DNA of 60,505 nucleotides, taken from positions 1 through 60,505 of the IMG/VR virus record IMGVR_UViG_3300032213_000971; one strand, 5' to 3'. How positions within the stretch are numbered: the stretch's first letter is position 1; every line of letters starts with the position of its first letter. The stretch comes from a virus. Taxonomy: Duplodnaviria > Caudoviricetes. This document shows, piece after piece, positions 1-60,505 of this stretch. The translations under genes were made by a program, and so were the position numbers. The notes beneath the pieces were generated by a model. It was given only the letters and a program-made list of their open reading frames with translations, was not told where the DNA came from and did no database searches.

Positions 1-123
1 AGCAACTTATTACGCAAATCCTCAAGATGAAAATAATCTTTTGATTTATAGTTCTTTTGCTGATGCACAAAACAAAGCAAATCCAGTTTTGATGTCTGGA
101 TCTAGCGGAAAGTTTAATATCGA
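1..123. repeat. Terminal overlap, left copy (identical to 60383-60505)
   Basis: agcaacttattacgc...tttaatatcga occurs at both ends; typical circular-contig assembly overlap. Confidence 0.97.
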
Positions 124-2398
124 CATTAAAAAACAGATTTCTCCGCAGACGACATTAAAATTTAATGTAAAACACTACTATTTAAACGGAGATGAGGTGC
201 AAGCGTTTACTTCTGGTGGAACTCTCCCTGCTCCTTTGATTTCTGGTCAAAAGTATTTCGTAAATGTAATTGATACTTTTACAATCTCACTGCACACCAA
301 TATTGCAGATGCGAATGCTTCTAGCGCGAACTCATTGGTTAATCCAGTTGTTCTAACAGACGCAGGAACTGGTGTAAATGCTCTGGTGAAACTAATCCCA
401 GCAACATCTTCAATAGGAACGCAATCACAAATTACTGCTCCCGGATTCCCTGTTGCTGCGCCATTAGGATCTGGTGCTACTGCTACTGCCGTTGTGGTCG
501 GTTCTGTCAATGGACAGTTTGATATAACAAACCCCGGGAGCGGTTACACTACAGCACCAACCATCACGTTTAGTTCTCCCCCAAGCCCACCAGAAGGATC
601 TGGTCAAATTGCAAGTCCAGCAACAGGCTACGCAGTTATGGTTCCTGATGGGCCGGGACTATTAACAAATAAAGTAGCTAGTATTGTGCTTACGAATGCA
701 GGGTCTGGATACTCTTCTGCTCCGACGATTACTTTTTCTACGGGGAATGCATCTGCATCATGCGCTATTACTACATCTCTTGTTTCTAGATTCACAGTAA
801 CGAACGGCGGATCTGGTTATACAGACGCACCGATTGTTAAGATTACAGGAGGAGGAGGAACAGGAGCAACAGCAACTGCGATTGTTGACCCAAACAGCAA
901 CACAGTAACGGGATTAAATATCATAACGGAAGGAACCGGGTATACTTCAACCCCAACAGTTACCATAACTGCGTCTTCTGGTGTATTTGTTGAATTTGTA
1001 TCTACTGGCGCACTTCCCTCTCCTTTGGAGTCTGGAGTAGCATACACAGCAGAGCCTCCGCTAAATACAACAACAGGAAATTTCACAGTAAAGACAACTC
1101 AAGGGAATACAATCAACATTACTAGTGCGCCAACAGGCAATTTTTTCCTAGCTCTTTCTAGGTCTTTTACTGTTGGTTTTAACAATATATGGAATGGAGA
1201 CTTCTCTGGCATTACTACTGGGCAAGGTGTCTATTTAGATTCTGACTACCTCCTTCCAACAGGAGTTAGCTCTAATTTTTTGTACTATATCAGGAAACTA
1301 AACAACACTTCAGCGCAGTTGTATAATAGTCCTGAAAATGCCAGTTCAACGACAACAACGCAGGGTCTTATTGCTATTTCTCAAATAGGGACAGGGCAAA
1401 CATATTATGCTATCAGGAATCCCGCCTATGCAAAAGCATACAATAATCTTTTGTTTGTAGAATATAATCAATATATCAATTCAAGCACGATTGTAACATT
1501 CTCTACAACAGGAACATTGCCTTCCCCTTTAACAGCGAACACAAATTATCTTGTTAGTCCGCAAGGGCAATATCTTTCTATCACCGATCTGAACAACAAT
1601 CCGATTGTTTTTTCTCAAAACGCGATTCCTACTTTGCAGATTGGAGAGTTGAACCTTTTGATTCAAAGGGATTTTACAATCGTTCCATCAACAAATTTAC
1701 AAGCAACAAACAGCCTATTTAACACAGGGGATCAACTGACAGTAAGACCGAGTCCAAACGATTCTTTGCCTTATGGACTACAACAAAGCACGTTGCAATC
1801 ACCTCAATATTATTACGCTAGAACAATTGGTTCTAATTTAATAGAAATATACGACACAGAAAGCAACGCTCTTAACATTGCTTCAACAAATGGAAGAGTT
1901 ACATTTTATGATATTGGCAATTTAGTAAATAGTGCGTTTTTTACAGATGTAATTTTGCCTCCTGTGCTAATTAAAAGCATTTACCACATAGAAAAGCCAG
2001 AGACATTGGGATACGTTAGCCTGTATGCGTTCGACAACGGAAGAAGCAACGACATGGCTCTGATTGGGCAGTATCACCCGAAAGAAACCAATCCTAAATA
2101 TCGCAGGATTAGGATCGGAAAGCAGTGTTCTTGGGCTAGGGTTATTTACCGGGTAAAAGCACCGCAAATATCCAGCGAATACGATTACATTCCTGTTGAA
2201 AACCAACGCGCAATTTTAGCTGCTCTACATGCCGTGGATCTGGAGGACAAAGACTTCTTTGACCAATCTCAAAAGTATTGGGCAGTCGCATACGGTTATT
2301 TGAGGAACCAGAACGAGAGCATGGAAGGTCACGCTATGCAGCCACCTCAAATCAATAATATCACTTATGGTGATTATACTGACGAGGTGATGTTCTAA
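1..2398 (+). CDS. C-terminal part of origin-spanning virion protein (putative head-tail adaptor/tail tubular A-like, with inserted beta-repeat domains); starts at 59445
   Basis: In frame with ATG 59445 across the overlap (~1111 aa total). Contains GSGY(T/S)xxPxxxx repeats and LPxPL..Y repeats, and a helical C-terminus. Lies directly upstream of the nozzle-like gene. Confidence 0.7.
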   Translation, partial: ATYYANPQDENNLLIYSSFADAQNKANPVLMSGSSGKFNIDIKKQISPQTTLKFNVKHYYLNGDEVQAFTSGGTLPAPLISGQKYFVNVIDTFTISLHTNIADANASSANSLVNPVVLTDAGTGVNALVKLIPATSSIGTQSQITAPGFPVAAPLGSGATATAVVVGSVNGQFDITNPGSGYTTAPTITFSSPPSPPEGSGQIASPATGYAVMVPDGPGLLTNKVASIVLTNAGSGYSSAPTITFSTGNASASCAITTSLVSRFTVTNGGSGYTDAPIVKITGGGGTGATATAIVDPNSNTVTGLNIITEGTGYTSTPTVTITASSGVFVEFVSTGALPSPLESGVAYTAEPPLNTTTGNFTVKTTQGNTINITSAPTGNFFLALSRSFTVGFNNIWNGDFSGITTGQGVYLDSDYLLPTGVSSNFLYYIRKLNNTSAQLYNSPENASSTTTTQGLIAISQIGTGQTYYAIRNPAYAKAYNNLLFVEYNQYINSSTIVTFSTTGTLPSPLTANTNYLVSPQGQYLSITDLNNNPIVFSQNAIPTLQIGELNLLIQRDFTIVPSTNLQATNSLFNTGDQLTVRPSPNDSLPYGLQQSTLQSPQYYYARTIGSNLIEIYDTESNALNIASTNGRVTFYDIGNLVNSAFFTDVILPPVLIKSIYHIEKPETLGYVSLYAFDNGRSNDMALIGQYHPKETNPKYRRIRIGKQCSWARVIYRVKAPQISSEYDYIPVENQRAILAALHAVDLEDKDFFDQSQKYWAVAYGYLRNQNESMEGHAMQPPQINNITYGDYTDEVMF

Positions 2399-2399
2399 A

Positions 2400-8586: not shown

Positions 8587-10410
8587 ATGGCATTCTCATT
8601 CCAACCATTTTCCCCCCTTGCGAATGTTCAGCCAATAACCCTTGGTGGTTTGGATGTTTCCCAAATTAGGCCAATAACACCTTTCGCTGTAGGGAATACG
8701 AGGCCAGAACTCGTTGCCCAAGGAATTGCGTCTGGCACAAAAGACATTGCTTTAGGCATTCTCACAGGCGTAAAAGCCGCAAGAGAGCAAAAACTTCAAG
8801 ACCTCAAGGATCAAAGGGATCTCGCAAAAGAAGTAATCAAGCTAAAAGCTGCGCGAGAGGATAAACAAACTACTCTTGCCGAAACGATGCGGCACCATAA
8901 AGAGTTGGAAAGGTTGTCGCAGGAAAGGATTAAAAACGTCACGCCTCCTGATTGGGGTGGCGATTCATCCGAAACCACAGATACAGAGCAGCCATTGTCC
9001 GCTACGCAACCGCTCAAAACACCAACATCTACGCTCCCGACACAAGATAGATACCAACGTGACACTACTCCTGTTGGCGGGTTTTCTTTCGATACCATCA
9101 ACCTTCCCGAAGACCTGAATAATGATAGCAATCTGATTCAGGCAGATAAAATCCTTGGTGATCTTAATTATCCAGTGCCTTTGGAAACTTCTCCAACACC
9201 GCTTGGAATGAACGCTGTAAATGCTTTAGCAAATGTTGATTGGTCAAGCGTCAGGGCCAACCTTGGAGCAGGGCTTTCTGCTGGAGCAACCCCGGCAAGC
9301 ATTCCTGCAACCATCCCAAGTTTCGCAAAAGCCAAGCCCCCGGTTTCACTTTCTACTTTGGGTGGAGTTTCTAATGAGCAGATGTCGCAGATTCAACAGC
9401 AATTGGCAGAAATGCCGTTGAAATCTGTTTCCCCGGTTGCGGCACCTAAACCTGATGTAACAAAATTTGGTGTTCCTAAATCAGGTTTCAAAACATACGA
9501 GGAAGCTAGGAAATATATTGAATCTCAATCTGGCAACCCTAATTGGTATGCTGAAGCCACGCCAAAACCTGATAAGTCAGGAATGTTTGTTATTCCTTGG
9601 AAGCAACAAGACCCAAGCAAGGCGCAAACACAGGAGATGCAGAAAAAAAGGCTATCCAAGTTGGATCAGGCTGGACTTGCTTCAGAGGTAGATAAGTTTT
9701 ACAAAGATCCTATCTACAAGCTCATGCAGTCGCGCCCGATGCAGATTACGGAATTCAGTTCTTTGATGGACGAGGCATACTCCCCAAACCCCAAAAAGTC
9801 ACGCAGGGCAATCGACCTTGATGCTATTGACAAGTTTGTAATGTTTGCCCGTGGAACGCAGCCAACAGAAGCACAGTATTCAGAAATTCAGAACTGGACA
9901 CAGGGGTACTTAAACGATGTTCGTCAAAAAATAGACAAAGGAGTAGAAGGAGCAAGGCTTTCTGACGCTGATTATGAAAGCATGATGAACCTAATGTATC
10001 GTGCATACAACACAACGGCAGAACTGGTTAATCCTGAAATAGCCGACTTGAGGACGGTGGTTAAGGCAAAGCATCCAGACCTGATGGAACAGGAACTGCC
10101 ATCCACATATATGCCATACGAAGTGCCTTCGTATTTTGAAGACAAAATGGTAGAAGCGCAGCAGCAAATGAAGCAATATCATGCTCTAATGCAGGATGCA
10201 AAAAACAAGAATGATGCAACTACGTTCGCAGAGGCCAAAAAAAAGTACGACGAAGCAAAATCTGAACAGGACAACCTAAACAATTCTTTGACAAAATCTA
10301 AAGCATCACGACACCCATTAAATAAAAAAGCGTTCCGCCGAGGAGGATGGAGGCAGGGACTATTTGGTGGATCTAGCGATATTGGTGCAGCATTACAAAA
10401 TGCCCAATAA
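8587..10410 (+). CDS. Putative internal virion / DNA transfer protein
   Basis: 607 aa, low-complexity N-half and helical C-half, directly before the giant protein. Confidence 0.6.
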   Translation: MAFSFQPFSPLANVQPITLGGLDVSQIRPITPFAVGNTRPELVAQGIASGTKDIALGILTGVKAAREQKLQDLKDQRDLAKEVIKLKAAREDKQTTLAETMRHHKELERLSQERIKNVTPPDWGGDSSETTDTEQPLSATQPLKTPTSTLPTQDRYQRDTTPVGGFSFDTINLPEDLNNDSNLIQADKILGDLNYPVPLETSPTPLGMNAVNALANVDWSSVRANLGAGLSAGATPASIPATIPSFAKAKPPVSLSTLGGVSNEQMSQIQQQLAEMPLKSVSPVAAPKPDVTKFGVPKSGFKTYEEARKYIESQSGNPNWYAEATPKPDKSGMFVIPWKQQDPSKAQTQEMQKKRLSKLDQAGLASEVDKFYKDPIYKLMQSRPMQITEFSSLMDEAYSPNPKKSRRAIDLDAIDKFVMFARGTQPTEAQYSEIQNWTQGYLNDVRQKIDKGVEGARLSDADYESMMNLMYRAYNTTAELVNPEIADLRTVVKAKHPDLMEQELPSTYMPYEVPSYFEDKMVEAQQQMKQYHALMQDAKNKNDATTFAEAKKKYDEAKSEQDNLNNSLTKSKASRHPLNKKAFRRGGWRQGLFGGSSDIGAALQNAQ

Positions 10411-13400
10411 AATGGATTCTTTCGACATCCCCGACATTTCGTCTGATCTTATACACAATAAGGATCACTCCATTTCTGAAAAAAAGAAAAAGAAGGAAGA
10501 TGAATCTGGTTTTGATATTCCTGATGTGGAGTCGGATATTATCTCTATTGAGGATGGGAAAAAGGAAATTAGCCAAATACCTGAAGTAAAAGCTGATATT
10601 GAGGCAGCAAAGTATATGAGTGGAGAGATTGAGCCAACGGCTGCTCCTGCTCAAGAAAAACCAAGGCAAGAACAGTTTTCTCTGACTCCAGCATTGGGTT
10701 CTGGAATTCCATCACTAGAAAAGGATATCATAAAGACAGAACAGGCTCATGAACAGCCCGTTCGCGATATTGCAGATGATTTTGGTGATCAGTTGGAAAA
10801 GACCGGGCCGTGGGCTACAGAACTGCCATTTGTGAGAAAAATTGCCGGGGATCTTTCGGCAGAACAGCGCGAAAAGCTAATTGAGAGGCACAAATGGGTT
10901 TATGGTATGCTTTCCCCAGAGCAACAAGATCAATACTTTGCCGAAAACAAGCATTCTTCTCCATACAACTTTGAAAGTGCCAAAAAGGATGTGGGTTCTT
11001 TCATGCAATGGGTTGGAACTACAGGGAAGGCAGCGGTTGACGTTGGTCTTGATTTTACTGCTGCATACCTTACGGAACCACTAAAAGCAGCGATTGAAAA
11101 TGTGCCACAAAATGATCGCGTAAAATTAGCTAAAGAAGTACTTGATGCTGACATACGCAACGTAACCGGGGCGATACCTAATACGCTTACCGAGTCGTAT
11201 CGGATGCTTAAAAAGTATTACGGTGCTAAAACATTTTCAGACCTTACTGAAAGAATGGGTGATTCTGCATTGAACCCTGACCCAGTATCATTGTTGCCAC
11301 AATTAGCAGGCATTTTTTCATTGCCTACAATGATTGCATCAATGGGTAGGCTTAATGATCCTGATGCTGGAGGCGTAGCAGCAATTGACAACATTAATAC
11401 TTGGATAACCAAAGACGAAACAACTGCCAAAAAGCATTTCAAAAATCGCATGGAATCAGAGGCAGAAGACTCTGCTAATGATTGGAAAACAAGGCAAGGT
11501 TCTGAAAAGCTATCCCCGTGGTCGCAATGGATGTATAGCCCATTTGGACAGGGTGTAATGCTTGAACGAGAAAAAAGCCTTCTGCCTTCTCCTGAAGTAT
11601 ATGCCGCAACATATGGCATTACGGAAGCAGAAGCAGCAGGAAGGATTGAAGCCATTGCAGAAAAAAACGCTGACTACAATAGCCGGGATATAGCGCAGAA
11701 ATGGAACAACGAGTTTGATCAGGCAAAACAGGATTTTGGCGGATTCGTAACTGGGCCGATGGGAATGGGGCCGGGAGGTCTGGCACTAGGTGCCATTGGC
11801 CTCGCAAAGAAACTAGGCGGGGCAATGGAGGGCATCGGTCTTTCCGACGAGGCTTACAATGCGTATATGCGAGCGAAGCAAGCACGCACTATCAAGGCAA
11901 CAGAAAACTCCATTGAAGAGGCCCAGAAGCCACGTTTCTATGAATCTGGAGCGGACTACATAGTCGGTCAGCAGGCCGCTGCTGCCGATTGGGCAAAAGG
12001 AATGCTTGAGAGTATTCCAGAGGGCGCGAGACCATTTTTGCCTGTGGCTTTAAAGTATGCTGGGCTAGGAGGTGTAGGTGGAGCAGCGGGTGCTTTGGTT
12101 GATCCAGAAAGCCCGGGAATGGGTGCTTTGAAAGGTGCTGGTGTGCTTGCAGGGCTGGGCCTTGCACCCAGAGTCGTATCTGACCTTGGAAAGGCTAGGC
12201 GTGCGATTGGTGGTGGCGAGGGTGGTGTTTTCAAGACTGCTGGGCAGGCACCTGAATCAGCGTGGGCAACCCAAAAGTTGTTTGGTGGAAAAACTGGAGC
12301 AGTCGCTGATTATCTTACCGAGAATATAGGGCCACTTGCAAAAGCCGGGGTTCACCTAGGAACGCTGAACCTAGCTATGGGAACTATCAACAGCGACACT
12401 CCCAGCGAACTGATTAGCTCCACCATGCAGGGCATGATGATGGGATCAGGGTTCCACTCCTTGGGTGGCGGATTTAGGCTTTTGCATGAGAAGCCAATGC
12501 GGGAACAGATGGAGGACAGGAAAAAGCGCGATGTGGAGATTTACCATGCCGTGAAATCAGCTTCCCCGGAAACACAGCAGCAGTTGAACCGAATCGGAGA
12601 TTTTGAGAATGCCATCAATCGTTCAAAATTGAACACATTGATGATGGAGGCAAAACTGCAAGATGCATTGCAATCTGGTGACAAAAAGAAAGTCGATGAG
12701 GCGCAGAAGGCTGTAAATGTTGCAAGGGCAATACAGAAATCAATGTTGCGTGCAAACCTCCAGACCCGGAGTGAATATGGTCGTAATTTACGATCATTGT
12801 ATGCCGACATCCATGCTTTGGCAAATGGTGCTAGGAGTGGTCAGGGTCGCCTAAAGATTGAAGTACTGACCAGAGATCAGATCTTTGACCGTATCAATGC
12901 AGAAAACGATGCAAACAATTACGGAAAGACTCCAGAGCAGATGTGGCAAGAGTCTGGGATGCCCGGCAGATACAGCAAGAGCAAAGGAACTGCAATAATC
13001 AACGCTGACAACATTATGCGTAGGCAGACTCTTTTTGGTGAGTCTCCAACACAAGCCCTGCGGCATGAAGGTTTTGGTCATGGTCTTTACAACATCCCTG
13101 AATTTAGAAAGATGAATCAGGCCGCAGAGAGGCTTTTGTTTGATCAGCAAGAACGTGCGCTGAATGGTGATATCATCAAGCAAAGCAAAGGACGCTACAG
13201 CGACGATGATCTAATTTCCATGTACATGAACAACTACCTAAAAGGTAGTGATGTGGAGAAAATCCAATATGCCCGTGATATGGGGCTGTGGGATGAGGCA
13301 AACAACACCCTGAATCGTGAAGCCACAGTTCAGTACATGAAGGAAGAGGTTATTGCTGAACTAAACGCAGGAAACCTGAAATACGGCCTTGGTGCGCTTA

Positions 13401-16400
13401 AAAAGCAGGGTGGAGCAATTGAACAATGGCTGGAACACAATAAGGACAGGAATATGGTTGCTAGTGCCTTGTCCAGCCTCACCGGGATGGGTGCAAAGCC
13501 AATTTACAGCGAACTGCTAGAAACTGAATTCAGCCCTGAAGTAGTTGCTGCCAACAGGGAAGCACTTAAAAGCCTATCCAAGTATAATGGTAGGTTTGAA
13601 GAGTCAACGGAAGAGCAGTCTGGGACTGAACTTCCTGAAAAAGTTTTGAGTTCTGATTCTGCTCTTCGCACCCGTTATTCGCTTAACGGTGGCGAGTATA
13701 AGACGCAAATGGTGGCGGAAGTACGCGATAAGAACGGCAATCTAGTAGGAAGGCCGCTCCCGGTGGGAGATAATGCCGCCGAAGGATCTTGGGTGCATGA
13801 TGAGAACACAAACACAATCCAGCGCACCCGTGGATATGGTCAATTGCAAGAATCAGCAGCTATTCAAGTGCCTCTTGGTGGAAAAGTTACCGTCAAACGT
13901 GACTTTGTTTATGAACCAGATGGCATTACTCCAATCAGGAATTCCGATAAGGATATCAACACTTTAGAGTCGAACCGTGTTGAGGCTATTCGTCAGGCAC
14001 TTGAGACCGACGACCGTTTTGGTGGTCAGGGTCTGATCCCGGTGTCAGCAGATGGCGAAAGCTATAGCGGCATGCTTTCACCAAAGCAGCGCAAAGCGAT
14101 TGAGGATCTCCCGGAAAGCATTGTTCCGCTTTCAATGAAGGAAAAGATCTTTGAGCTTAATGATGCACTTGCAATGGATGATGGAAGCACGTTCGACATC
14201 GATTATGCACCTCGTTTGCAGGGCAAGAAGTACAAAGGTCGCCGGGCAGAGATTTACGGCATGATCCCGGTGAATTGGGGGCTTTCCAAGGCGGGTAATT
14301 TCTACATTCGTTCCGTATCTCTGGGTGCTTTGTTCCGCAAGGTAAAGGCCCGGAAAAAGTTGCTGCCCGGATGGTATGAGCCTTGGGGTGGGTCTACGGA
14401 GGCATTTATGGACGAGTTCCGTAATACCTACCTAAAGAACACCAAGGAAGGTAAGCCCGGGTGGATGGGCCTTGACCCGTCGAAACCTACGGAACAGACA
14501 CCTCTAGCAACGCTGAAGCAGAACAAGTTCAACGACATGCTGAACCTCGCGAATCGTCCCCGGGAGATCACTCCTCGCGACCCAGATAAGCGTAAGAGCA
14601 AGGCTGGAGAGGTTGATACTTTGTGGAGGTCATTCAGGGTGGACGCTATTGCTGACATGCTTAATACCCCGGAACGCAAATACCCGTTTGATGCAAAGCG
14701 TGTGTATGAGAATTTAATGCCACGGGAGGTTTCTGAAGAACTGACCCCACGGGATATTGAACGCGAAACAGGTAAAAATATTGATTTTGCGATTCCGCCT
14801 GAAGAAGAAGCAGCAAAGACTGCGTTGTACGAGAACAAGCGGCCACAATTTGGTGCAGCACGCACACTAAAAGAAGGTCATCCTGTATCTCTGCGAATCG
14901 ATATCCCTGCGTACAAGCGTGGAACCTATGTTGTTACTGTTCATGAGCAATCTGGGTCTAAAGGTGGAGTTGGCAGCGTTGTCGGGTACGACACGCATGC
15001 CCGGGTATACGACCCCGTATTTTCGTCCGACGAGAGGCTTGCTGGCAAAGTGGCTGCTGGAGGATCAAAAACTCCTCTAGCGACCGTTATGGGCGATTTC
15101 AACCCATCCCGGGAGATTCCCGCAGATATCGAAAGCTGGACACCGATTGGTTTTGACCCAAAGGAGCATAGTTTCTTTTATGATAAGGCAACTGACCGTC
15201 CTGTGATTGGTGGCGATGAGGCATACAGCGTAGGCAACACGGTATTTGTTAAAAACCCTGTATATGGTGAAAAGTCTGATTTTGCATACATGCCCCGTGA
15301 AGTAGCAGAAAGAGACGATGCACACCGCAAAGCTATTGATTCAGGCGACATGGAGACTGCACAAAGGATGGTTGACGAGGAAGCAGCTAGAAAAGGATAC
15401 GAAACTAAAGCATATCACGGAACAGACGCAGAAAAAATCGATGTGTTTGACAAAGATATGTTTGGTGAATCAACCGGGCAAGGTGACATCGGAGATGGTT
15501 TTTATTTTGCAACAACACCAGAGTTTGCTTCGGAATTTGGGAAAAACGTAATGCCTGTTTATTTGCAAAAAGGCAAATACGCTACCAATAAAGATTTGCT
15601 AGACCCAGACATTCAATCAGCAATTGACGACGACATGGGTTTCAAATCCGTTGCAGAGGTTTTGGCAGAAAAGGGATTTGATGGAATTAAATATGATCGT
15701 GGGAACAACAGGGTTGAGATGGTCGTATTCGACAATAATAAAGTCAAATCCGCAGATCCAATCACACGCGACGATGCAGGAAATGTGATCCCCTTGTCGC
15801 AACGCTTCAATCCAGAGAAAAATGACATTCGTTATCAGCCCCGGGAGGTTCAGGAAAAACTAGGTGCAGAAGAAGATCAGGAGCCTATGGGATATAAAAT
15901 CCCTACTATTCAGGCAAATATCCCTGAAAGCGTGGACAATGCAGCTACCTTGGAAAACGCATTTACAATTGCAGGAGGCCAAAAATGGCAAAAGGGAAGG
16001 GATCTTAAAGTTGCTTTGCAGCAGAATGTAAAAACTGAAGCTGCAAAATCCGGGGTAGATGTTTCTGTTCCATCACCACAAACTACCGAATATCTAGTTC
16101 GTGTTGGGAAGAAAGACGCTTTGGTTGCACTCAAGCAAAACGCAAATGCTATTGGATGGTACGATATAAAAACACGCCTAGCTATTAGGATTATGTCACT
16201 CATGCACCCTGAAATCATGACTGATGAAAATGCTAGACTTGCATTTACATGGGCATTAGCGACGACATCTAATGGATTAAAAGTAGGAAAAAATTTCCAG
16301 TTGGCAGAACGTGCGTACAGAAAATACAAAGAGACAGGGATTATGCCTAATGATATTGGCACAGGTACAGCAAAAGCTGCTATTAACGAATCTTTGGATC

Positions 16401-18049
16401 TTTTTAATAAACTATCCAAAGAATGGGGAACAGACAATCTGCGCCAATTCATGCAAACACCTTTTAGCGTTGCTGAAATCGCAGCTATCGACAAATCCCT
16501 AAAGCCGGGAGGTGAACACTCTCCAACTGTAGTTAAAGGTTCTGCTATTTTAGGGCCGAAGATTGGAAACGGGTTTTTTAGCAACCTGTACGGAAACTTT
16601 GATGCTCTTACAATGGATCGTTGGCTTGTGCGTACATGGGGACGCTGGACAGGAACCCTAATCGAAAGCGATCCGATTAATACTGAAAATCAACGCAATC
16701 GCTTGCAGGCAGCAGTACAAGCAATGACACCAGAGCAGGCCGCATCTATGAGCGAACTCGTTGGAAAGGATGTTGTAAGCACCCCAACAGATGAATTGGC
16801 TGTAGCAATTCAAAAGGCTTCTATGAAGCCTGAAAAGCGTGAGCAGATGCCAGACGAATTTAGGCTTTCTGGGAATGGACTTGCAAAGTATCTGGACGGG
16901 CAAAAAGAGGCACCAGCGGGGCCACATGAACGTACATACATCCGTTCTGTCTTCAGCCAAATACTTGATGAGCTACACCAAATTCCTGAATACAAGGATC
17001 TTACAATGGCAGATCTTCAAGCGGTTTTATGGTACGGAGAAAAGAGGTTGTATGAGACAGCAAAAGTAAAGATTGACGACGAGAACGACCCAGAGGGATA
17101 CTCTGATGAGGAGGCTCCTGACTACGCAAACGCAGCCGCAGAGGTTGCATTGGCAAACGGGATTTCTCAACGAAAACTTAATAATGCAATAGCACTAGAA
17201 AATGGACGCACAACAAATACACAATCAGGAGTTCAAGGGACTGACCAGCCCGGAGAGCAGGCAGCGTCTGGAGCTTTTACTCCAAGCAAAAAACGCTCCT
17301 TCGTCCAGACAAGGGCAATCGCTAGGGTTCGATCCAATAGAAGTGGCGATGAAGAACAATCCTTCTCTTACTCGCGAGGAAGTGGAGGAGGAGGCCAGCG
17401 CACACGGGTTCTAAAATCACTTGGTGTTCGTTATGTAGACGAATTCAAAGGTGGAGCGGGTCTAAAGCGGGTATTAAAAAACAACGGTGTTGATGCACCT
17501 TCGTATTTAGAAATTGATAACTCCGATTCTGCGAGCGTTCAGAAATTTGCTGACATGATTCAGGAAAGCAAAGAATCATCGCAATGGGGATCATCTGTGT
17601 ATGTGTATCCTAATGAGGATTACGCAAACATGCGTTTATTGATTGCAAAAGATGGCAAGTCAGGTGCTGCCGTTAAAAAAGATGGAGACATTGTTTCTGT
17701 ATTCAGCCATTCCGATAGCAAGGCTGGTCGTGCAGTACTTGAAGCTGCTATTGCCGCTGGAGGAACAAAGTTGGATTGTTTTGATACGGTTCTTCCTTCA
17801 TATTACGCTGCTCATGGGTTTAAAGCTGTTTCCCGGTTAAAATGGGACGATTCCCAAGCACCAGAAAACTGGGACAAGTCTGTTTATGGAAAACACAACA
17901 ATGGTGAGCCAGATGTCGTTTTCATGGCGTATGACCCATCTTATTATGGTACATACTCTATCAAAGACGGGAAAATTGCAGAATCCTATGACCAAGCATT
18001 AGAAATTCAAAAACGTGCTGTTAACAAATTGAAGAAAGCATCACAGTAA
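10400..18049 (+). CDS. Giant polyvalent internal virion protein (zincin-like HExxxH, ADP-ribosyltransferase, HhH-glycosylase-like and GNAT-like domains)
   Basis: HEGFGH at 13064-13081; AYHGT..GDGFYF..GFDGI..EMVVF (ART-PolyVal-like) at ~15300-15840; GPKIG..F..NL.G..TMDRW at ~16550; GGTKLDCFD..YYAAHGF near the C-terminus. Start is ATG 10400 or 10412. Confidence 0.85.
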   Translation: MPNKMDSFDIPDISSDLIHNKDHSISEKKKKKEDESGFDIPDVESDIISIEDGKKEISQIPEVKADIEAAKYMSGEIEPTAAPAQEKPRQEQFSLTPALGSGIPSLEKDIIKTEQAHEQPVRDIADDFGDQLEKTGPWATELPFVRKIAGDLSAEQREKLIERHKWVYGMLSPEQQDQYFAENKHSSPYNFESAKKDVGSFMQWVGTTGKAAVDVGLDFTAAYLTEPLKAAIENVPQNDRVKLAKEVLDADIRNVTGAIPNTLTESYRMLKKYYGAKTFSDLTERMGDSALNPDPVSLLPQLAGIFSLPTMIASMGRLNDPDAGGVAAIDNINTWITKDETTAKKHFKNRMESEAEDSANDWKTRQGSEKLSPWSQWMYSPFGQGVMLEREKSLLPSPEVYAATYGITEAEAAGRIEAIAEKNADYNSRDIAQKWNNEFDQAKQDFGGFVTGPMGMGPGGLALGAIGLAKKLGGAMEGIGLSDEAYNAYMRAKQARTIKATENSIEEAQKPRFYESGADYIVGQQAAAADWAKGMLESIPEGARPFLPVALKYAGLGGVGGAAGALVDPESPGMGALKGAGVLAGLGLAPRVVSDLGKARRAIGGGEGGVFKTAGQAPESAWATQKLFGGKTGAVADYLTENIGPLAKAGVHLGTLNLAMGTINSDTPSELISSTMQGMMMGSGFHSLGGGFRLLHEKPMREQMEDRKKRDVEIYHAVKSASPETQQQLNRIGDFENAINRSKLNTLMMEAKLQDALQSGDKKKVDEAQKAVNVARAIQKSMLRANLQTRSEYGRNLRSLYADIHALANGARSGQGRLKIEVLTRDQIFDRINAENDANNYGKTPEQMWQESGMPGRYSKSKGTAIINADNIMRRQTLFGESPTQALRHEGFGHGLYNIPEFRKMNQAAERLLFDQQERALNGDIIKQSKGRYSDDDLISMYMNNYLKGSDVEKIQYARDMGLWDEANNTLNREATVQYMKEEVIAELNAGNLKYGLGALKKQGGAIEQWLEHNKDRNMVASALSSLTGMGAKPIYSELLETEFSPEVVAANREALKSLSKYNGRFEESTEEQSGTELPEKVLSSDSALRTRYSLNGGEYKTQMVAEVRDKNGNLVGRPLPVGDNAAEGSWVHDENTNTIQRTRGYGQLQESAAIQVPLGGKVTVKRDFVYEPDGITPIRNSDKDINTLESNRVEAIRQALETDDRFGGQGLIPVSADGESYSGMLSPKQRKAIEDLPESIVPLSMKEKIFELNDALAMDDGSTFDIDYAPRLQGKKYKGRRAEIYGMIPVNWGLSKAGNFYIRSVSLGALFRKVKARKKLLPGWYEPWGGSTEAFMDEFRNTYLKNTKEGKPGWMGLDPSKPTEQTPLATLKQNKFNDMLNLANRPREITPRDPDKRKSKAGEVDTLWRSFRVDAIADMLNTPERKYPFDAKRVYENLMPREVSEELTPRDIERETGKNIDFAIPPEEEAAKTALYENKRPQFGAARTLKEGHPVSLRIDIPAYKRGTYVVTVHEQSGSKGGVGSVVGYDTHARVYDPVFSSDERLAGKVAAGGSKTPLATVMGDFNPSREIPADIESWTPIGFDPKEHSFFYDKATDRPVIGGDEAYSVGNTVFVKNPVYGEKSDFAYMPREVAERDDAHRKAIDSGDMETAQRMVDEEAARKGYETKAYHGTDAEKIDVFDKDMFGESTGQGDIGDGFYFATTPEFASEFGKNVMPVYLQKGKYATNKDLLDPDIQSAIDDDMGFKSVAEVLAEKGFDGIKYDRGNNRVEMVVFDNNKVKSADPITRDDAGNVIPLSQRFNPEKNDIRYQPREVQEKLGAEEDQEPMGYKIPTIQANIPESVDNAATLENAFTIAGGQKWQKGRDLKVALQQNVKTEAAKSGVDVSVPSPQTTEYLVRVGKKDALVALKQNANAIGWYDIKTRLAIRIMSLMHPEIMTDENARLAFTWALATTSNGLKVGKNFQLAERAYRKYKETGIMPNDIGTGTAKAAINESLDLFNKLSKEWGTDNLRQFMQTPFSVAEIAAIDKSLKPGGEHSPTVVKGSAILGPKIGNGFFSNLYGNFDALTMDRWLVRTWGRWTGTLIESDPINTENQRNRLQAAVQAMTPEQAASMSELVGKDVVSTPTDELAVAIQKASMKPEKREQMPDEFRLSGNGLAKYLDGQKEAPAGPHERTYIRSVFSQILDELHQIPEYKDLTMADLQAVLWYGEKRLYETAKVKIDDENDPEGYSDEEAPDYANAAAEVALANGISQRKLNNAIALENGRTTNTQSGVQGTDQPGEQAASGAFTPSKKRSFVQTRAIARVRSNRSGDEEQSFSYSRGSGGGGQRTRVLKSLGVRYVDEFKGGAGLKRVLKNNGVDAPSYLEIDNSDSASVQKFADMIQESKESSQWGSSVYVYPNEDYANMRLLIAKDGKSGAAVKKDGDIVSVFSHSDSKAGRAVLEAAIAAGGTKLDCFDTVLPSYYAAHGFKAVSRLKWDDSQAPENWDKSVYGKHNNGEPDVVFMAYDPSYYGTYSIKDGKIAESYDQALEIQKRAVNKLKKASQ
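17202..17414 (+). CDS. Candidate overprinted small protein (alternate frame inside the polyvalent gene)
   Basis: 70-aa ATG ORF with A-rich leader and a helical C-terminus (NPSLTREEVEEEASAHGF). The main frame is low-complexity linker over the same interval. Confidence 0.5.
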   Translation: MDAQQIHNQEFKGLTSPESRQRLELLLQAKNAPSSRQGQSLGFDPIEVAMKNNPSLTREEVEEEASAHGF

Positions 18050-20439: not shown

Positions 20440-20449
20440 TCACTCACCC

Positions 20450-20475
20450 GGCCCCGGGTTCGATCCCCGGGGCCA
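20450..20475 (+). other. T-loop hairpin (tRNA minihelix-like)
   Basis: GGCCCCGGG-TTCGATC-CCCGGGGCC-A: perfect 9-bp stem with a TPsiC-like loop. Confidence 0.7.
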
Positions 20476-20494
20476 CAACCACACCAATAAATCC

Positions 20495-20764: not shown

Positions 20765-20766
20765 TC

Positions 20767-36045: not shown

Positions 36046-36100
36046 TCCAATTATCTATGACTATGTTTATCTGATGTTACAGAAGTTAAGTAAACCAAAT

Positions 36101-36298: not shown

Positions 36299-36303
36299 TC
36301 TTC

Positions 36304-36587: not shown

Positions 36588-36626
36588 TTGGTTGCCTCTA
36601 CTTATCATTGTTGCTAAATAACGCAA

Positions 36627-46619: not shown

Positions 46620-47204
46620 ATGAAGAAAATATACGCATATTACGAGTCTATTGCTTTGTCCAACCAACCAGAGGAATTTGCCTGCGCCAACCATTGGAAA
46701 GCAAGCTGGGAGAAAAATGGATGGGAAACAGTCATGTTGAACAGGAGTCACGCACAAGGAAGCCATCTTTACAACAAGCTACAGCAAAAGATGATGAATT
46801 GTGCGATGGGATTACCATCAGAACTAACAGCAAGATTCCATTGGATTACTGCTAGGTTTGCTCGTTGGTGCGCCTTGCACGCTGCCGGTGGTGGGTGGAT
46901 GTCCGACTACGATGTTTTAAATAAGTCATTCAAACCAGAAGCCGCAGACAAAATAGAACAAACAGAAACGCTTACTATCGTTGGCGACCCAGCATTTCTA
47001 TTTTACGCCACCAAAGAACATGCCGCATCAGCTATAATAAAGCTCTCGCGAACAGACATTATTCAGGACAATTCTGTAGTTTCTGAACATAGCCTCCTAG
47101 GAATAGAACTGACCACAAAAGGATTCGCGAAAAAAGTCATTCACGCAAAGTCACAGGAAGATGCGTGTAGGTCTGAAATTATGGCGAATCTGATGAAAAA
47201 GTAA
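46620..47204 (+). CDS. DxD glycosyltransferase-like protein (GT32-like)
   Basis: W..SW...GW, RW.AL...GG.MSDYD. Confidence 0.7.
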   Translation: MKKIYAYYESIALSNQPEEFACANHWKASWEKNGWETVMLNRSHAQGSHLYNKLQQKMMNCAMGLPSELTARFHWITARFARWCALHAAGGGWMSDYDVLNKSFKPEAADKIEQTETLTIVGDPAFLFYATKEHAASAIIKLSRTDIIQDNSVVSEHSLLGIELTTKGFAKKVIHAKSQEDACRSEIMANLMKK

Positions 47205-47205
47205 T

Positions 47206-47949
47206 ATGAAAAGTAAATTTTTGGTAGCTTTGCAGTATTGGGATGGAGACAAAGAACAAGCCTGCAAATTGCTTGATTTGTTTGCCAAAACAATAACTCC
47301 AGAAAACGAGTTTGCAGATCTAGTAATTTTTTATAGAGCGGACTCGACCCCTCCCTGTTTAGAGTTGCTAGAAATACTAAAAATTCCATTTTCCAAGGTT
47401 TGGTGCATCAAATCTAAAAATATTATGCAGGGGTGGCCGAATGGGTGTAACCAACTCTGGACTGATTTGGTAATGGAGGCATATATACGATCAACGCAAT
47501 CCGCTACTTCAAAACCACCAGAATGGTCAGAATATAAAGCAATTCTCACGATAGAATCTGATTCCTGCCCTATAAAAAAAAGCTGGTTAAAAGAGTTATC
47601 TGAAGAATGGGATGGCCTTCAGGCTTGTGTAGTCGGAACATGGTTGGGAAACAACGACGAGCATGAAGGGTTAGGGCATATCAACGGAAATGCTATGTTC
47701 TGCATAGATATTGTCAAAAAATGCCCAACAATATCAGGAACCCCGTGCGATAAAGCGTGGGACACATATCACGCAAAAACATTTCAGAAGGCAGGATGGG
47801 CAAGCACACAAAAAATAGTAAGTATGCACAACAGCAAAACTCTTAATACAGATCAATATGAACACCTAAAAAACACAGATTGCGTATTTTTGCATGGAGT
47901 AAAAGACAATTCCGTGTTGGAGATGTATTTAAATGAAAATTCTAAATAA
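47206..47949 (+). CDS. Putative glycosyltransferase
   Basis: GWP.G.N, IESDSCP...W, HINGNA, AWD and HGVK motifs. Confidence 0.65.
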   Translation: MKSKFLVALQYWDGDKEQACKLLDLFAKTITPENEFADLVIFYRADSTPPCLELLEILKIPFSKVWCIKSKNIMQGWPNGCNQLWTDLVMEAYIRSTQSATSKPPEWSEYKAILTIESDSCPIKKSWLKELSEEWDGLQACVVGTWLGNNDEHEGLGHINGNAMFCIDIVKKCPTISGTPCDKAWDTYHAKTFQKAGWASTQKIVSMHNSKTLNTDQYEHLKNTDCVFLHGVKDNSVLEMYLNENSK

Positions 47950-48583
47950 CGGAATTCGCGTCATAGAAGGAGACACCCATATATCTCTATGGGTTGAGCA
48001 ATCTGGAAGGCTAGATCACGATCAATATGCGCTCCCGGTAATCCTAAAACACATCGCAAATGGAGACTGCGTTGTTGATGCTGGAGCGTTTATTGGCGAT
48101 CATACTATTGCTTATTTGAGAGCAGTAGGATCGGAGGGAAAAGTAATCGCGTTTGAACCAAACCCAGCAGCCTACGATTGCCTTGTTCTAAACTGCAAAG
48201 AGGCATACTGCATCAGGTCTGGGCTAGGAGACAAAGAAGAATTTATATCCATAGAACCTTCTGAAAATGCTGGGGCATCCCATCTTACTAATGGGAAATT
48301 AGGTTCAATTTCCGTAGTAACACTAGATTCATACAATCTAGACAGACTCAATTTCTTCAAAATAGATGTTGAAGGATACGAGTTAAAAGCATTGCTAGGT
48401 GCAGAAAAAACTATCTCAAAGCATAAGCCAAAGATGTGGATAGAAATAAATCCCGGTGCTTTAGCAAAACAAAATACAACTCCAGAAGAGATTTTTGGCC
48501 TAATTATGGGTCACGGGTACACTATTGAAGCGTTTCCTGATTTTTCAGAAGATCAATACGACATTCTTTGTGTTCCAAAATGA
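47933..48583 (+). CDS. FkbM family SAM-dependent methyltransferase
   Basis: VVDAGAFIG, AFEPN, KIDVEGYE..L.GA. Confidence 0.93.
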   Translation: MKILNNGIRVIEGDTHISLWVEQSGRLDHDQYALPVILKHIANGDCVVDAGAFIGDHTIAYLRAVGSEGKVIAFEPNPAAYDCLVLNCKEAYCIRSGLGDKEEFISIEPSENAGASHLTNGKLGSISVVTLDSYNLDRLNFFKIDVEGYELKALLGAEKTISKHKPKMWIEINPGALAKQNTTPEEIFGLIMGHGYTIEAFPDFSEDQYDILCVPK

Positions 48584-49263
48584 CAACAGACATTTTCATT
48601 AGGTCGTATTCGCCTGATTTTAAATGGCTTGATTATTGCCTTTTCAGCTGCGCCAAGTTTACGAAAGGCTTTTCTTCAATTCATATTGTAGTCCCGGAGC
48701 AAGACAAACACATTTTAAGCCACCTGACTCTGGAATCAGTTCATGGTGTTGCTCCTGCCTGCGAAGATGGATACCTAGATCAGCAAGTTTCTAAATTGTA
48801 CGCAGATGAATTTTGCCAAAGCGATTACATCCTGCACCTAGATAGCGACTGCGTTTGGTATAAAGAAACTACACCTCAAGATTTTTTCAAAAACGGAAAG
48901 CCAATCATCCTAGTTGAAGATGGCGTTGTTTCACCTTGGCCTAAAATAACAGAAAAAACACTAGGTTGGTACGACTCAAAAGAATACATGAGAAGACTTC
49001 CAATCATTTATCCAAGGTGGGTGTATCCAGAATTTAGAAAATGGATAGAAAACAAACATAGAATGTCTTTAAGGAATTGGATTTCTATCCAGCCACATAG
49101 AGAATTCAGCGAGTTCAATACTCTTGGGCAATGGCTTTTCAGATTTCACTCGGAAAAATTTGCATGGCTGCACCCATCTGAAACAGAAGTATTTGCTAAA
49201 CAATTCTGGTCGTGGGGTGGAGTAGAAAAAGAAGAAGATCAAATAAAATCATTTTTTTCTTAA
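48580..49263 (+). CDS. Putative glycosyltransferase (DUF6492-like)
   Basis: GYLDQQVSKL.AD, LHLDSD and FSEFN.LG motifs. Confidence 0.7.
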   Translation: MTTDIFIRSYSPDFKWLDYCLFSCAKFTKGFSSIHIVVPEQDKHILSHLTLESVHGVAPACEDGYLDQQVSKLYADEFCQSDYILHLDSDCVWYKETTPQDFFKNGKPIILVEDGVVSPWPKITEKTLGWYDSKEYMRRLPIIYPRWVYPEFRKWIENKHRMSLRNWISIQPHREFSEFNTLGQWLFRFHSEKFAWLHPSETEVFAKQFWSWGGVEKEEDQIKSFFS

Positions 49264-59133: not shown

Positions 59134-59436
59134 ATGCCTGCTGAAACACCAATGCCACCTACTGATATGCCAATGCCTGAAGCTCCCGCAATGCCACCCC
59201 CTCCTCAAGATGGTGGATCTGTTATGATTTCTATGCCACGCGAGGCTTTTAATGCGATGCGCGAAATCGTTTCACAGTTGGCAGCAGGGCTGGATCAACT
59301 TTCACAGTCAGTCGAACAGCAATCAGGATCACCACAAGCTGCCGAGGCACCCGTTCCTTCTCCTGCCCCCGGTGTCCCGGCAGAAGATGAAGAGTTCCTG
59401 AAAAGCATGGCAGAAGAGGCTAGTGCTGGAAGATAA
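59134..59436 (+). CDS. P/M-rich small protein
   Basis: A/C-rich leader; 100 aa. Confidence 0.7.
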   Translation: MPAETPMPPTDMPMPEAPAMPPPPQDGGSVMISMPREAFNAMREIVSQLAAGLDQLSQSVEQQSGSPQAAEAPVPSPAPGVPAEDEEFLKSMAEEASAGR

Positions 59437-59444
59437 TATAAAAC

Positions 59445-60505
59445 ATGTTCGTCTCGCAAATCATCGACGAGGCTTCCGAAATACTTGCTACTACTGACCG
59501 GGAAAAAGTATTTCGGAAGCTAACGCAGGCAGTCCAGATTCTGATGGAGTCTGGTCATTATCTGCACACTAATGCAGAAGTCGATGTTTGCACTGGTTGG
59601 GATGGGCAAACAATAACGCTACCCAGAGGTGTTGAAGTTCCTTTAGGTGTTAACGTAGATGGTTCTCCTACATATTTTAGGGGAAGACTTTTCCAGTACC
59701 ATGTCAACAAAGGAGGCATGTATAACCCGGTAGATTGGGCGTGGGATGACAGAGGATTCGTTAGCACAATCATGGACATTCGCCAGCCCAGCCAAGTTCT
59801 AGCAATCGCAGAACACAATGCTGACTCTGGAAAACAAATCCGCATTCTTGGAACTGACTCAAACAACCGAGAATTGAGGACTCAATTGCCAGACGGGCAA
59901 ACTATTGACGGAAAATTAGTTGATATTCACGCCCAAAGCGATTTTCCATATGGAACTATTATTCCAGACGGTATTCAGATAGACACTAGGCAAGTTGCGG
60001 TTTCTCCAATTTCGCAGTTTATTTCCGCTTCAGCGCATCAACTTTCTTCGGGGCAATCCGCTGTCTTTTCTGTTGTTTCTGGAGATTCGCCAGAAGTTAT
60101 CATTTCTGGAAAGACATATTACATTGGAGTAGATGCAGATAACGAAATTTCTTTATATAATAGTTCTTTGGATGCTCAATATAAGACCAATAAAATAAAT
60201 CTTCAAAGCATTGTAAACTCTGGAACAGTCAGACTAACAGACAGCAGGAAATCTAGTTTGCTGACTGCTGTTAATTTTGTTTCTACTCCTTCTGTAGCGA
60301 TTGATACGCCTAACTCTGTGTCGTTTTCTACAGGAACAGGATCAGGGTTCTCATCTGTGCTGCCAACACCATTGATTGCGGGAGCAACTTATTACGCAAA
60401 TCCTCAAGATGAAAATAATCTTTTGATTTATAGTTCTTTTGCTGATGCACAAAACAAAGCAAATCCAGTTTTGATGTCTGGATCTAGCGGAAAGTTTAAT
60501 ATCGA
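59445..60505 (+). CDS. N-terminal part of origin-spanning adaptor-like virion protein (absent from ORF track)
   Basis: MFVSQIIDEASEIL... is open to the window end and in frame with 41..2398. Confidence 0.85.
   Translation, partial: MFVSQIIDEASEILATTDREKVFRKLTQAVQILMESGHYLHTNAEVDVCTGWDGQTITLPRGVEVPLGVNVDGSPTYFRGRLFQYHVNKGGMYNPVDWAWDDRGFVSTIMDIRQPSQVLAIAEHNADSGKQIRILGTDSNNRELRTQLPDGQTIDGKLVDIHAQSDFPYGTIIPDGIQIDTRQVAVSPISQFISASAHQLSSGQSAVFSVVSGDSPEVIISGKTYYIGVDADNEISLYNSSLDAQYKTNKINLQSIVNSGTVRLTDSRKSSLLTAVNFVSTPSVAIDTPNSVSFSTGTGSGFSSVLPTPLIAGATYYANPQDENNLLIYSSFADAQNKANPVLMSGSSGKFNI
60383..60505. repeat. Terminal overlap, right copy
   Basis: Identical to 1-123. Confidence 0.97.

Follow-up and report, generated by a model that had tools for sequence, protein, structure and literature searches.

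Extreme restriction-site avoidance and accumulation of CCSGG in the genome of an uncultured lake-water phage

The multispecific C5 methyltransferases of the Bacillus phages SPR and phi3T protect sites of the CCGG group, and Dcm blocks overlapping sites. Vsr repair in Escherichia coli shapes oligonucleotide abundance, with CCWGG raised and its donor words lowered. A survey of phages (Rusinov et al. 2018, PMC6286503) describes site elimination as typical of those that are non-temperate with dsDNA genomes and, among recognition sites, of those read by orthodox Type II systems. The stretch of DNA analysed here, referred to as the window (60,505 nucleotides), is from an uncultured freshwater (lake-water) phage and represents a complete circular genome of 60,382 bp with a 123-bp terminal overlap (Table 1). 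Like the phages described in the survey passages used for comparison (PMC6286503), it shows total loss of orthodox Type II words via silent codon choice, in a genome in which no integrase was found. Relative to the phages in those passages the extent is unusual, with 30 of the 64 palindromic hexamers absent and three more present once each. Those passages also describe no enrichment of a word from the same group, whereas here CCSGG exceeds its expectation by a factor of 1.5 to 2.7, according to which null is applied. Site avoidance alone is textbook, and in that respect the genome is one more, if extreme, example. A search of all six frames for tyrosine or serine recombinases, integrases and resolvases found none and, although this absence does not prove virulence, the phage is probably virulent.

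The preliminary description of this DNA held that CCGG is found almost only as CCSGG, that CCAGG, CCTGG, GGWCC, GGATCC and CTGCAG are missing, and that CTAGG, CCTAG, CTTGG and CCAAG are common. Exact counts bear this out. CCGG occurs 238 times, 237 of them flanked so as to form CCSGG, and the exception, GCCGGT, lies exactly where it had been placed (Table 1). CCWGG, GGWCC, GGATCC and CTGCAG are each absent from the genome, and there are 51 CTAGG, 54 CCTAG, 78 CTTGG and 76 CCAAG. CCSGG itself is present 272 times (142 CCCGG and 130 CCGGG on the plus strand). The kilobases richest in CCSGG (Table 1) match the dense zones described earlier at 20100-22330 and 35500-38470, and no repeat family or repeat element was found in the first two of them. 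When the genome is divided into 3-kb bins, CCSGG is above a constrained null in 19 of the 21.

Table 1. Positions of features in the window
Feature	Position	Strand	Remarks
Terminal overlap	60383-60505		Duplicates 1-123
Densest CCSGG stretch	20001-22000		18 sites at 20-21 kb, 17 at 21-22 kb; 54-59 % G+C
Second dense CCSGG stretch	36001-38000		13 sites at 36-37 kb, 12 at 37-38 kb
Probable large terminase gene	36627-38519		24 CCSGG; in the second dense stretch
GCCGGT	46884-46889		Sole CCGG outside CCSGG
GTGCTC	25310-25315		Surviving GDGCHC site
GGGCAC	28657-28662		Surviving GDGCHC site
FkbM-family methyltransferase	47933-48583	+	Pfam PF05050, E 7e-20; sole methyltransferase gene found
Giant protein, 2561 residues	10364-18049		ART-PolyVal domain at residues 1678-1798
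tRNA-like 3' fragment	about 20447-20482		No exact bacterial match

Expected counts come from 300 randomisations in which synonymous codons were shuffled gene by gene (79 genes, 94.5 % of the genome), with proteins and codon usage kept. Against this codon-aware null, CCWGG (0 vs 83.7 ± 7.1; lowest shuffle, 63) and DCCGGH, which is CCGG outside CCSGG (1 vs 104.5 ± 8.6), are far below expectation and CCSGG (272 vs 98.7 ± 7.1; highest shuffle, 120) is far above it, so the motif rule proposed for these three words holds on all three counts. Apart from the single GCCGGT, all nine DCCGGH hexamers are absent, including the non-palindromic pair GCCGGA/TCCGGC (0 vs 23.9). Of the other words said to be missing, 67.8 ± 6.7 GGWCC, 25.5 CTGCAG and 10.8 GGATCC were expected. 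The list can be extended with CTNAG (0 vs 154.7), RGCGCY (0 vs 42), GRCGYC (0 vs 33) and GDGCHC, for which two sites survive where 63 were expected (Table 1). AAGCTT is at zero or near zero against an expectation in the range 25-155, and interrupted palindromes are absent too, for example GGCNGCC (0 vs 12.4). These deficits amount to an extreme form of classic restriction-site avoidance and support the earlier suggestion that the pattern records restriction pressure on CCWGG and CCGG. CCSGG is a mutationally risky word, as a single transition at its centre gives the vetoed CCWGG.

The words have been removed by synonymous respelling, with the protein conserved. In an alignment of 81 terminase sequences, the amino acid at codons lying under CCSGG is shared with the 80 relatives as often as at other codons (0.76 vs 0.76), and at these places the relatives use other synonymous codons. 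In the window, each of the 34 Pro-Gly pairs is written as CCS-GGN. CCSGG exceeds the unconstrained null by about 173 sites, and CCWGG and DCCGGH together fall short of it by about 188; figures as close as these might be seen if modified CCWGG had been systematically miscalled as CCSGG or a similar sequencing or assembly artefact had occurred. However, we find an artefact scarcely credible, since miscalls would ignore codon position whereas the sites sit at synonymous positions where residues are as conserved as elsewhere, long ORFs are intact, about 40 unrelated words are also missing, and independent contigs of relatives carry the same kinds of pattern. Deamination of m5C, raised in the preliminary description, cannot account for a complete purge either. 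The purge consists of synonymous changes that leave the protein intact, it extends to many words with no relation to cytosine methylation, and the words that deamination would supposedly produce, CTWGG/CCWAG, show no more than a mild rise (259 vs 211 expected). We read the pattern as a record of the restriction systems present among the hosts and not of a methylome, which had been suggested as one option.

The relatives form a mosaic in which all CCGG is purged, CCSGG alone is purged, CCSGG is preferred, or the mirror image is seen. Across 61 related contigs, CCWGG, CCSGG and bare CCGG are each separately vetoed, ignored or preferred. A veto on plain CCGG is common, with CCGG left just at unavoidable Pro-Gly codon pairs, and in some relatives it reaches the protein level, the Pro-Gly dipeptide being wholly lost. 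CCGG-reading enzymes must therefore exist in the host range of this family. The closest relatives in the alignment (L001-L019; terminase 80-83 % identical) have no CCSGG in the terminase. In three further relatives (L033, L155 and L157) CCSGG is preferred, yet bare CCGG is not vetoed, so preference and exemption may be separate things. Two mirror lineages, L158 and L159, are rich in CCWGG.

As the preliminary description supposed, CCSGG is treated differently from CCWGG and CCGG, and constrained nulls and codon choice (below) show it to be both exempt and actively preferred. Of the 16 palindromic hexamers centred on CpG, 13 are missing from the genome and GTCGAC is left with a single copy; the survivors are CCCGGG (35 vs 12.6 expected) and ATCGAT (14 vs 21.6). 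The AvaI-type set is split, with no CTCGAG (6.9 expected) and two CCCGAG/CTCGGG (15.7 expected) alongside the 35 CCCGGG. A shield would be expected to leave overlapping restriction words only where CCSGG is included, and this holds for CCGG (237 of 238) and for CCCGGG, with CTCGAG absent and CCCGAG/CTCGGG far below expectation. The reading we favour, from sequence patterns and with a probability of roughly 0.5, is avoidance under many strain-variable host Type II restriction-modification systems combined with a CCSGG methylation shield supplied by the host, with active CCSGG accumulation on top. Under pressure from hosts carrying such systems, selection has acted through synonymous respelling to clear the genome entirely of some 40 or more words of restriction type. 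In the CC(N)GG group, CCWGG and plain CCGG are vetoed and CCSGG, though it contains CCGG, is exempt. To judge from which sites survive, a methyltransferase with the specificity of NciI/BcnI would always methylate cytosine in the CCSGG sites of the phage DNA, and the methyl groups would block enzymes reading CCGG, CCNGG or CYCGRG. The likeness to SPR, phi3T and Dcm is that a methyl group of one specificity blocks enzymes reading an overlapping word, which would explain the survival of CCCGGG and of CCGG embedded in CCSGG.

The absence of all nine DCCGGH hexamers is also what would be seen with no shield at all, if a host enzyme with a CCGG core, and an outer pair that can be anything but C:G, cut DCCGGH alone and an EcoRII/PspGI-type enzyme had removed CCWGG. 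The CCGG-core enzyme would presumably be a relative of Cfr10I, NgoMIV or BsaWI. Sites with one 'bad' half are tolerated (69 ACCGGG, counted with its complement CCCGGT), as for a homodimer reading DCC half-sites. D/H degeneracy occurs in real enzymes, as in GDGCHC, a word that is itself avoided here, but we know of no DCCGGH-specific restriction enzyme. Such an enzyme leaves unexplained both why CCCGGG escapes when an AvaI-type veto takes out CTCGAG and CCCGAG and why CCSGG is actively preferred, and the plain CCGG veto in relatives indicates that a simpler enzyme is at hand. We consider this explanation unlikely, though not to be dismissed.

The genome actively accumulates CCSGG, and codon pairs are chosen that create the site. 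Arginine is spelled CGG in 41 of 67 cases after xCC and 41 of 84 after xDC with G next (49-62 % where CCSGG results), in none of 154 where bare CCGG would result and in 42 of 599 elsewhere (baseline 6-8 %). CGG usage is thus about eightfold higher exactly where CCSGG is created. Similarly, proline is CCG at 68 of 125 site-forming places against a baseline of 19-21 %. CCSGG is raised 2- to 4.4-fold in all four free frame-and-orientation classes and, since it is seen in every free reading frame and in either orientation, the preference acts at the DNA level. Part of the surplus could be a by-product of the vetoes, with CCG, CGG, CCC and GGG codons squeezed into the one safe context. Forbidding every absent word lifts the expectation from 99 to 134 ± 9, capping 48 additional depleted 5-mers lifts it to 164-172, and capping 354 depleted words (76 5-mer and 278 6-mer classes) at their observed counts gives 176-187. 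CCCGC, CCGCG and CTCGG, which are depleted in every frame, add a push of their own. However, about 90 sites are still unexplained under the most conservative null, which also caps words that are perhaps low merely because CCSGG is high, while capped nulls may still miss soft vetoes. The remaining CCG contexts are evenly lowered (CCGA 0.73, CCGC 0.80, CCGT 0.78), which resembles a pull rather than a push, relatives in which CCWGG and CCGG are both vetoed have no CCSGG surplus, and CGG rises just at the site-making places. That the whole surplus is a by-product is therefore improbable.

A mutational drive is another conceivable source of the surplus. A host m5C CCSGG methyltransferase together with a Vsr-type very-short-patch repair nuclease would convert T:G in CTSGG/CCSAG to C:G, and a drive of this kind has been proposed for CCWGG in E. 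coli. The resemblance to E. coli is that a restriction-type pentamer is above expectation on both strands, and the enrichment here is symmetric over both strands and all frames. The donors CTSGG/CCSAG are low in the window (122 vs 177) and in two CCSGG-rich relatives, L033 (52 vs 80) and L064 (67 vs 94). However, this donor signature is non-specific. The transversion neighbours CGSGG/CCSCG (0.63-0.77 of expectation) and CASGG/CCSTG (0.52-0.82) are equally low, each in five of six CCSGG-rich lineages, and CTCGG, low in all frames, fits an independent AvaI-type veto. Donors are not low in L155 (52 vs 45) or L157 (72 vs 74), and in the mirror lineages L158 and L159 the signature runs the other way, with CTWGG/CCWAG raised (96 vs 70 and 60 vs 50). 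No Vsr gene was found in the phage, and the eightfold codon preference seems larger than the effect in E. coli. Such a drive is very unlikely.

The preliminary description recognised no DNA methyltransferase in the phage, and a targeted search agrees. No match to Pfam families PF00145, PF01555, PF02086, PF02384 or PF05869 was found in six frames of the window at E up to 1, and none of the called ORFs contains the amino-methyltransferase motif IV ([DNS]PP[YFWH]). Modification of CCSGG by the phage itself, with a gain from dense modified sites, would call for a non-canonical enzyme, and the genome does encode an FkbM-family methyltransferase and, in the giant protein, an ADP-ribosyltransferase (ART-PolyVal) domain (Table 1); about two thirds of the scanned proteins match no family. 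The folded FkbM model is nearest to FkbM and to methyltransferases of RNA or small molecules, and none of the matches listed is a DNA methyltransferase. Among 53 phage loci with an FkbM homologue, CCSGG is enriched in none, ordinary in 46 and near absent in seven, so the presence of the gene does not track the CCSGG pattern and FkbM was rejected as the source of the shield. There is no link between the ART domain and DNA, none of the window genes lying up to 10 kb from the terminase is associated with CCSGG richness among the relatives, and a canonical methyltransferase was also sought and not found in the CCSGG-rich L064, which is 91 % complete. We regard self-modification as quite improbable. 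SPR and phi3T encode a methyltransferase and need no avoidance, whereas this genome has no recognisable one and avoids every unshielded version, so that any shield would need to be supplied by the host. In the reading we favour, the CCSGG methyltransferase is for this reason placed in the host population, where it would be fixed.

A shield predicts tolerance of CCSGG and not a twofold surplus, and the preference needs a further cause. As a tentative and rather doubtful suggestion, some lineages may accumulate CCSGG (in the mirror lineages, CCWGG and bare CCGG) since the site carries a protective mark in the current host, dense marks being an advantage against other defences and the preference being toggled as hosts change; such hoarding of sites would then serve as a counter-defence. 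Avoidance theory does not foresee the active creation of a restriction-type word; the accumulation of this one points to a protective modification whose benefit grows with each site or else to a repair bias that depends on context. With CCWGG, CCSGG and bare CCGG behaving as three separate units of the CC(N)GG group, the pattern provides a readable record of host restriction repertoires that differ between close relatives. Should the host be found, the word list of the phage yields a prediction for it, namely its restriction enzymes and a single fixed methyltransferase of CCSGG. A comparison of the terminase with cultured phages gave no match, and its sole match in a bacterial genome is to a 6-kb contig of a metagenome bin.

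CCWGG, GGWCC, GGATCC and CTGCAG are each absent from the window, and 237 of its 238 CCGG lie within CCSGG, the sole exception being GCCGGT at 46884. The counts made by eye in the preliminary description, and its placing of this exception, were all right. The codon-aware null proposed there has now been run, using 300 shuffles of synonymous codons within genes, with the proteins and the codon usage of each gene kept. Relative to this null, CCWGG and the CCGG outside CCSGG (DCCGGH, referred to here as bare CCGG) are far below expectation and CCSGG is far above it. These departures lie far outside chance and confirm the observation. Unpressured words match the same null, namely GATC (279 versus 273 expected), CTAG (164 versus 156) and GAATTC (26 versus 23.5).

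Words in the window, with the counts expected from synonymous codon shuffling
Word	Observed	Expected
CCWGG	0	83.7 ± 7.1
DCCGGH (CCGG outside CCSGG)	1	104.5 ± 8.6
CCSGG	272	98.7 ± 7.1
GGWCC	0	67.8
CTNAG	0	154.7
GDGCHC	2	63.2
RGCGCY	0	42.3
GRCGYC	0	32.9
CTGCAG	0	25.5
AAGCTT	0	24.1

Among the palindromic hexamers, 30 of 64 are missing and 3 more are present once, and the interrupted palindromes GGCNGCC (0 versus 12.4 expected) and GCGNCGC (0 versus 9.3) are missing. Asymmetric words that are scarce on both strands, including CAGCTC (1 versus 31), ACCTGC (1 versus 30) and ATCGAG (1 versus 24), could reflect Type IIS enzymes or others with non-palindromic sites. GCCCGC and CACGTA are also nearly missing on both strands, genome-wide; CTCGAC is not avoided (21 versus 19.4 expected). 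We consider it very probable (about 0.9) that the pattern in the window is restriction-site avoidance. It matches the pattern of Type II word loss surveyed by Rusinov et al. (PMC6286503), who describe the elimination of orthodox Type II words as typical of non-temperate double-stranded DNA phages. The core is a known phenomenon, seen here in an extreme form.

The respelling is silent and the protein is kept. Pro is CCC or CCG in all 34 Pro-Gly pairs encoded in the window. When the probable large terminase gene was aligned by codon with its counterparts in 80 relatives, the relatives were found to hold other synonymous codons at the CCSGG sites of the window, and residue conservation at these sites does not differ from that at other positions (0.76 versus 0.76). 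Because these places are synonymous and their residues conserved, a base-calling artefact was ruled out.

A by-product of the vetoes on other words would explain at most half of the CCSGG surplus. Constrained nulls were generated by synonymous swaps within genes (400,000-500,000 proposals per run), refusing swaps that created forbidden words. At equilibrium, CCSGG stood at 130-146 when only CCWGG and DCCGGH were forbidden, at 134 ± 9 when every absent word was forbidden, at 164-172 when 48 depleted 5-mers were additionally capped at their observed counts, and at 176-187 when 76 5-mer and 278 6-mer classes were capped. Vetoes can therefore lift the word part of the way, but all of these nulls fall short of the observed 272, and the last, capped ones are over-cautious, as the abundance of CCSGG may itself be the sole reason why some capped words are scarce.

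Codon choice shows an active preference. CGG encodes Arg at 41 of the 67 places that follow a CC-ending codon and at 41 of the 84 that follow a DC-ending codon and have G as the next base, versus 0 of 154 places where bare CCGG would result and 42 of 599 elsewhere. For Pro, CCG is used at 68 of 125 site-forming places, at 8 of 217 where bare CCGG threatens and at 19-21 % otherwise. CCSGG is raised 2- to 4.4-fold in all four free frame-orientation combinations and in 19 of 21 bins of 3 kb, and its two orientations are equally common although the genes are all on one strand. Frame, orientation and genome-wide spread thus make the preference a property of double-stranded DNA, and not of translation or a local element. 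No extended motif was found around the sites, except for T at -1 in 41 % of them (30 % in the null), nor were there repeats at the sites, clustering beyond local G+C or an excess of close pairs in which CCCGG could form a hairpin with CCGGG. Other CCG contexts are evenly lowered (CCGA, 0.73; CCGC, 0.80; CCGT, 0.78), which looks like a pull to CCGG rather than a push away from one neighbour.

In the terminase gene, the window has 24 CCSGG and L001-L019, its closest relatives by terminase alignment at 80-83 % identity, have 0, so the sites were gained in the lineage of the window, and they overshoot any neutral level. This active accumulation is the part of the pattern that avoidance theory does not predict. 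Among titles and abstract openings in the literature, none on CCSGG enrichment in phages was found.

Repair bias of the very-short-patch (Vsr) type, converting the donor words CTSGG/CCSAG to CCSGG, could produce such a surplus, and these donors are low in the window (122 versus 177 expected). However, most lineages are equally low in the transversion neighbours, the donors are not low in the related loci L155 and L157, and they are raised in L158 and L159, two relatives rich in CCWGG. Donor depletion of this type was rejected as not specific to the donor words. What is left as the cause could be a benefit per protected site, or a repair bias beyond the Vsr donor test. For PspGI, an enzyme specific for CCWGG, the site of enhanced deamination is reportedly CCSGG; if so, the word would be depleted, not enriched. 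A study of the enzyme (PMC1557792) names sequence-dependent enhancement of deamination in its title and reports in its abstract that PspGI protects the cytosines in its own site.

Sixty-one non-redundant related loci, each of at least 9 kb, were compared with their own codon-shuffle nulls. Among these loci, 53 have at most one CCWGG, 24 have almost no CCSGG and 8 have it raised at least 1.6-fold, and about 20 have almost no bare CCGG. Counts by codon context indicate that all CCGG is vetoed in L066-L069, L076, L116, L134, L137, L141, L145 and L152. The residual CCSGG in these relatives is about the number of Pro-Gly pairs, because Pro-Gly has no spelling without CCNGG. Fourteen relatives were considered as sharing the rule of the window and all except L064 were rejected; in the other 13 the few CCSGG again approximate the forced Pro-Gly pairs, which indicates a plain CCGG veto. 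In L006, L011, L083, L087 and L012, there are no CCNGG and no Pro-Gly dipeptides in 13-22 kb. Every way of encoding this dipeptide contains CCNGG, so the purge extends into the protein sequence.

CCSGG is preferred in L160, L033, L155 and L157, where CGG makes up 36-63 % of Arg codons at site-making places versus 16-34 % elsewhere. The mirror lineages L158 and L159 are depleted in CCSGG (7 versus 53 and 1 versus 30 expected, respectively), and both CCWGG (149 versus 85 and 110 versus 62) and bare CCGG (141 versus 74 and 97 versus 57) are enriched, about 1.8-fold, with CGG and CCG codons favoured where bare CCGG results. These lineage differences show that CCWGG, CCSGG and bare CCGG are acted on separately, and the family displays an arms race with separate vetoes and preferences for the three words. 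What is new is that CCGG is sheltered in CCSGG and, most of all, that CCSGG is actively accumulated in a family that also has mirror lineages. L147 (0 versus 45 expected) and L151 (0 versus 47) have no GATC at all, a word that matches expectation in the window and in most other relatives.

Since plain CCGG vetoes are frequent among the relatives, CCGG-reading enzymes must lie within the host range of the family, and despite these vetoes the window retains its 237 sheltered CCGG. Thirteen of the 16 CpG-centred palindromic hexamers are missing and GTCGAC occurs once; the survivors are CCCGGG (35 versus 12.6 expected) and ATCGAT (14 versus 21.6). Within the AvaI-type set, which includes CCCGGG, CTCGAG is missing (0 versus 6.9) and CCCGAG/CTCGGG is rare (2 versus 15.7). 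A homodimer accepting the CCC half-site of CCCGAG should cut CCCGGG too, so the simplest reading is that any word containing CCSGG is protected. Methylation by an enzyme of NciI/BcnI specificity would give this protection, and the methyltransferase would be one fixed in the host population. Such a shield would have to be host-supplied, because the phage has no recognisable DNA methyltransferase and its FkbM-type methyltransferase is excluded. We give shielding of CCSGG by host methylation close to an even chance.

The preliminary description had also recognised no DNA methyltransferase in the phage, and this is borne out by six-frame Pfam searches and a motif IV scan. Five DNA-methyltransferase Pfam families that each match in 3-14 of 14 control genomes (just 3 for Dam, PF05869) gave no match in the six frames of the window, and the amino-methyltransferase motif IV is in no window ORF. 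No Vsr gene was found in the window, and the records behind L033 and L064 yielded no canonical DNA methyltransferase or Vsr. Judged from its homologues, of which more than 500 were found on phage-sized contigs (53-77 % identical among the 120 listed), the FkbM methyltransferase is a common phage gene; no relative was found in bacterial genomes. Its predicted structure, of high confidence (pLDDT 92.7), resembles methyltransferases of the FkbM, RNA and small-molecule kinds, and the chains listed as similar include no DNA methyltransferase. CCSGG is enriched in 0 of 53 loci with an FkbM homologue and near absent in 7, and on these two grounds FkbM was rejected as the shield. A 447-residue protein was rejected as a methyltransferase because its predicted model is beta-helix tail-like. 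No gene common to the CCSGG-rich relatives was found within 10 kb of the terminase.

Features of the window
Feature	Position	Location	Remarks
Gene spanning the junction of the circle	59445 through 2398		
2561-residue protein	10364-18049	end of late genes	ART-PolyVal ADP-ribosyltransferase domain, residues 1678-1798
tRNA-like stretch	20447-20482		resembles T-arm, acceptor 3' strand and CCA
447-residue protein	26485-27828	among early genes	
tRNA-Thr	36304-36376	flanks terminase gene	confirmed by Rfam at gathering score
Large terminase (probable)	36627-38519		630 residues
tRNA-Gln	38596-38669	flanks terminase gene	confirmed by Rfam at gathering score
tRNA-Trp	39129-39205	flanks terminase gene	not confirmed by Rfam at gathering score
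FkbM-type methyltransferase and adjoining DUF6492 protein	47933-49263	among late genes	FkbM small

The window begins and ends with the same 123 bases, and its record is a virus contig classed as having direct terminal repeats and as 100 % complete, which indicates a circular genome of 60,382 bp. In the gene model of the present analysis, 79 ORFs, all on the + strand, make up 94.5 % of it. Recognisable proteins are few. Profile matches were obtained for ERF, a PD-(D/E)XK/DUF2800 nuclease, RusA, a DnaC/IstB-like ATPase and DUF1376, with a weak match for the small terminase; the protein adjoining this match is interpreted as the large terminase. The genome also encodes a lysozyme and a ParB-N protein. 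No integrase or resolvase was found in the window. The tRNA-like stretch was not called as a tRNA by ARAGORN or Rfam and has no exact match in bacterial genomes, and a role as an attachment site is unsupported because the genome has no integrase.

Three proteins and one DNA stretch from the window had no match in 50,697 cultured-phage records. The terminase is encoded on 226 IMG/VR contigs and 111 metagenome contigs, with best-segment identities of 65-83 % among the 80 loci listed per collection, and the metagenome scan gave none closer than 83 % among the matches listed. Its single match in bacterial genomes, on a 6-kb contig of a metagenome bin, says little on the host. Public runs containing the window stretch are labelled metagenomes, one of them aquatic, and contigs of four other public runs match it at about 85-99 % likeness.

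Neither the 2561-residue nor the 447-residue protein has a solved relative by sequence. The former, in which no further domain was recognised, may be an ejected virion protein. The Atlas model of the latter resembles beta-helix tail or pectate-lyase-like proteins, and this structural-looking gene is oddly placed.
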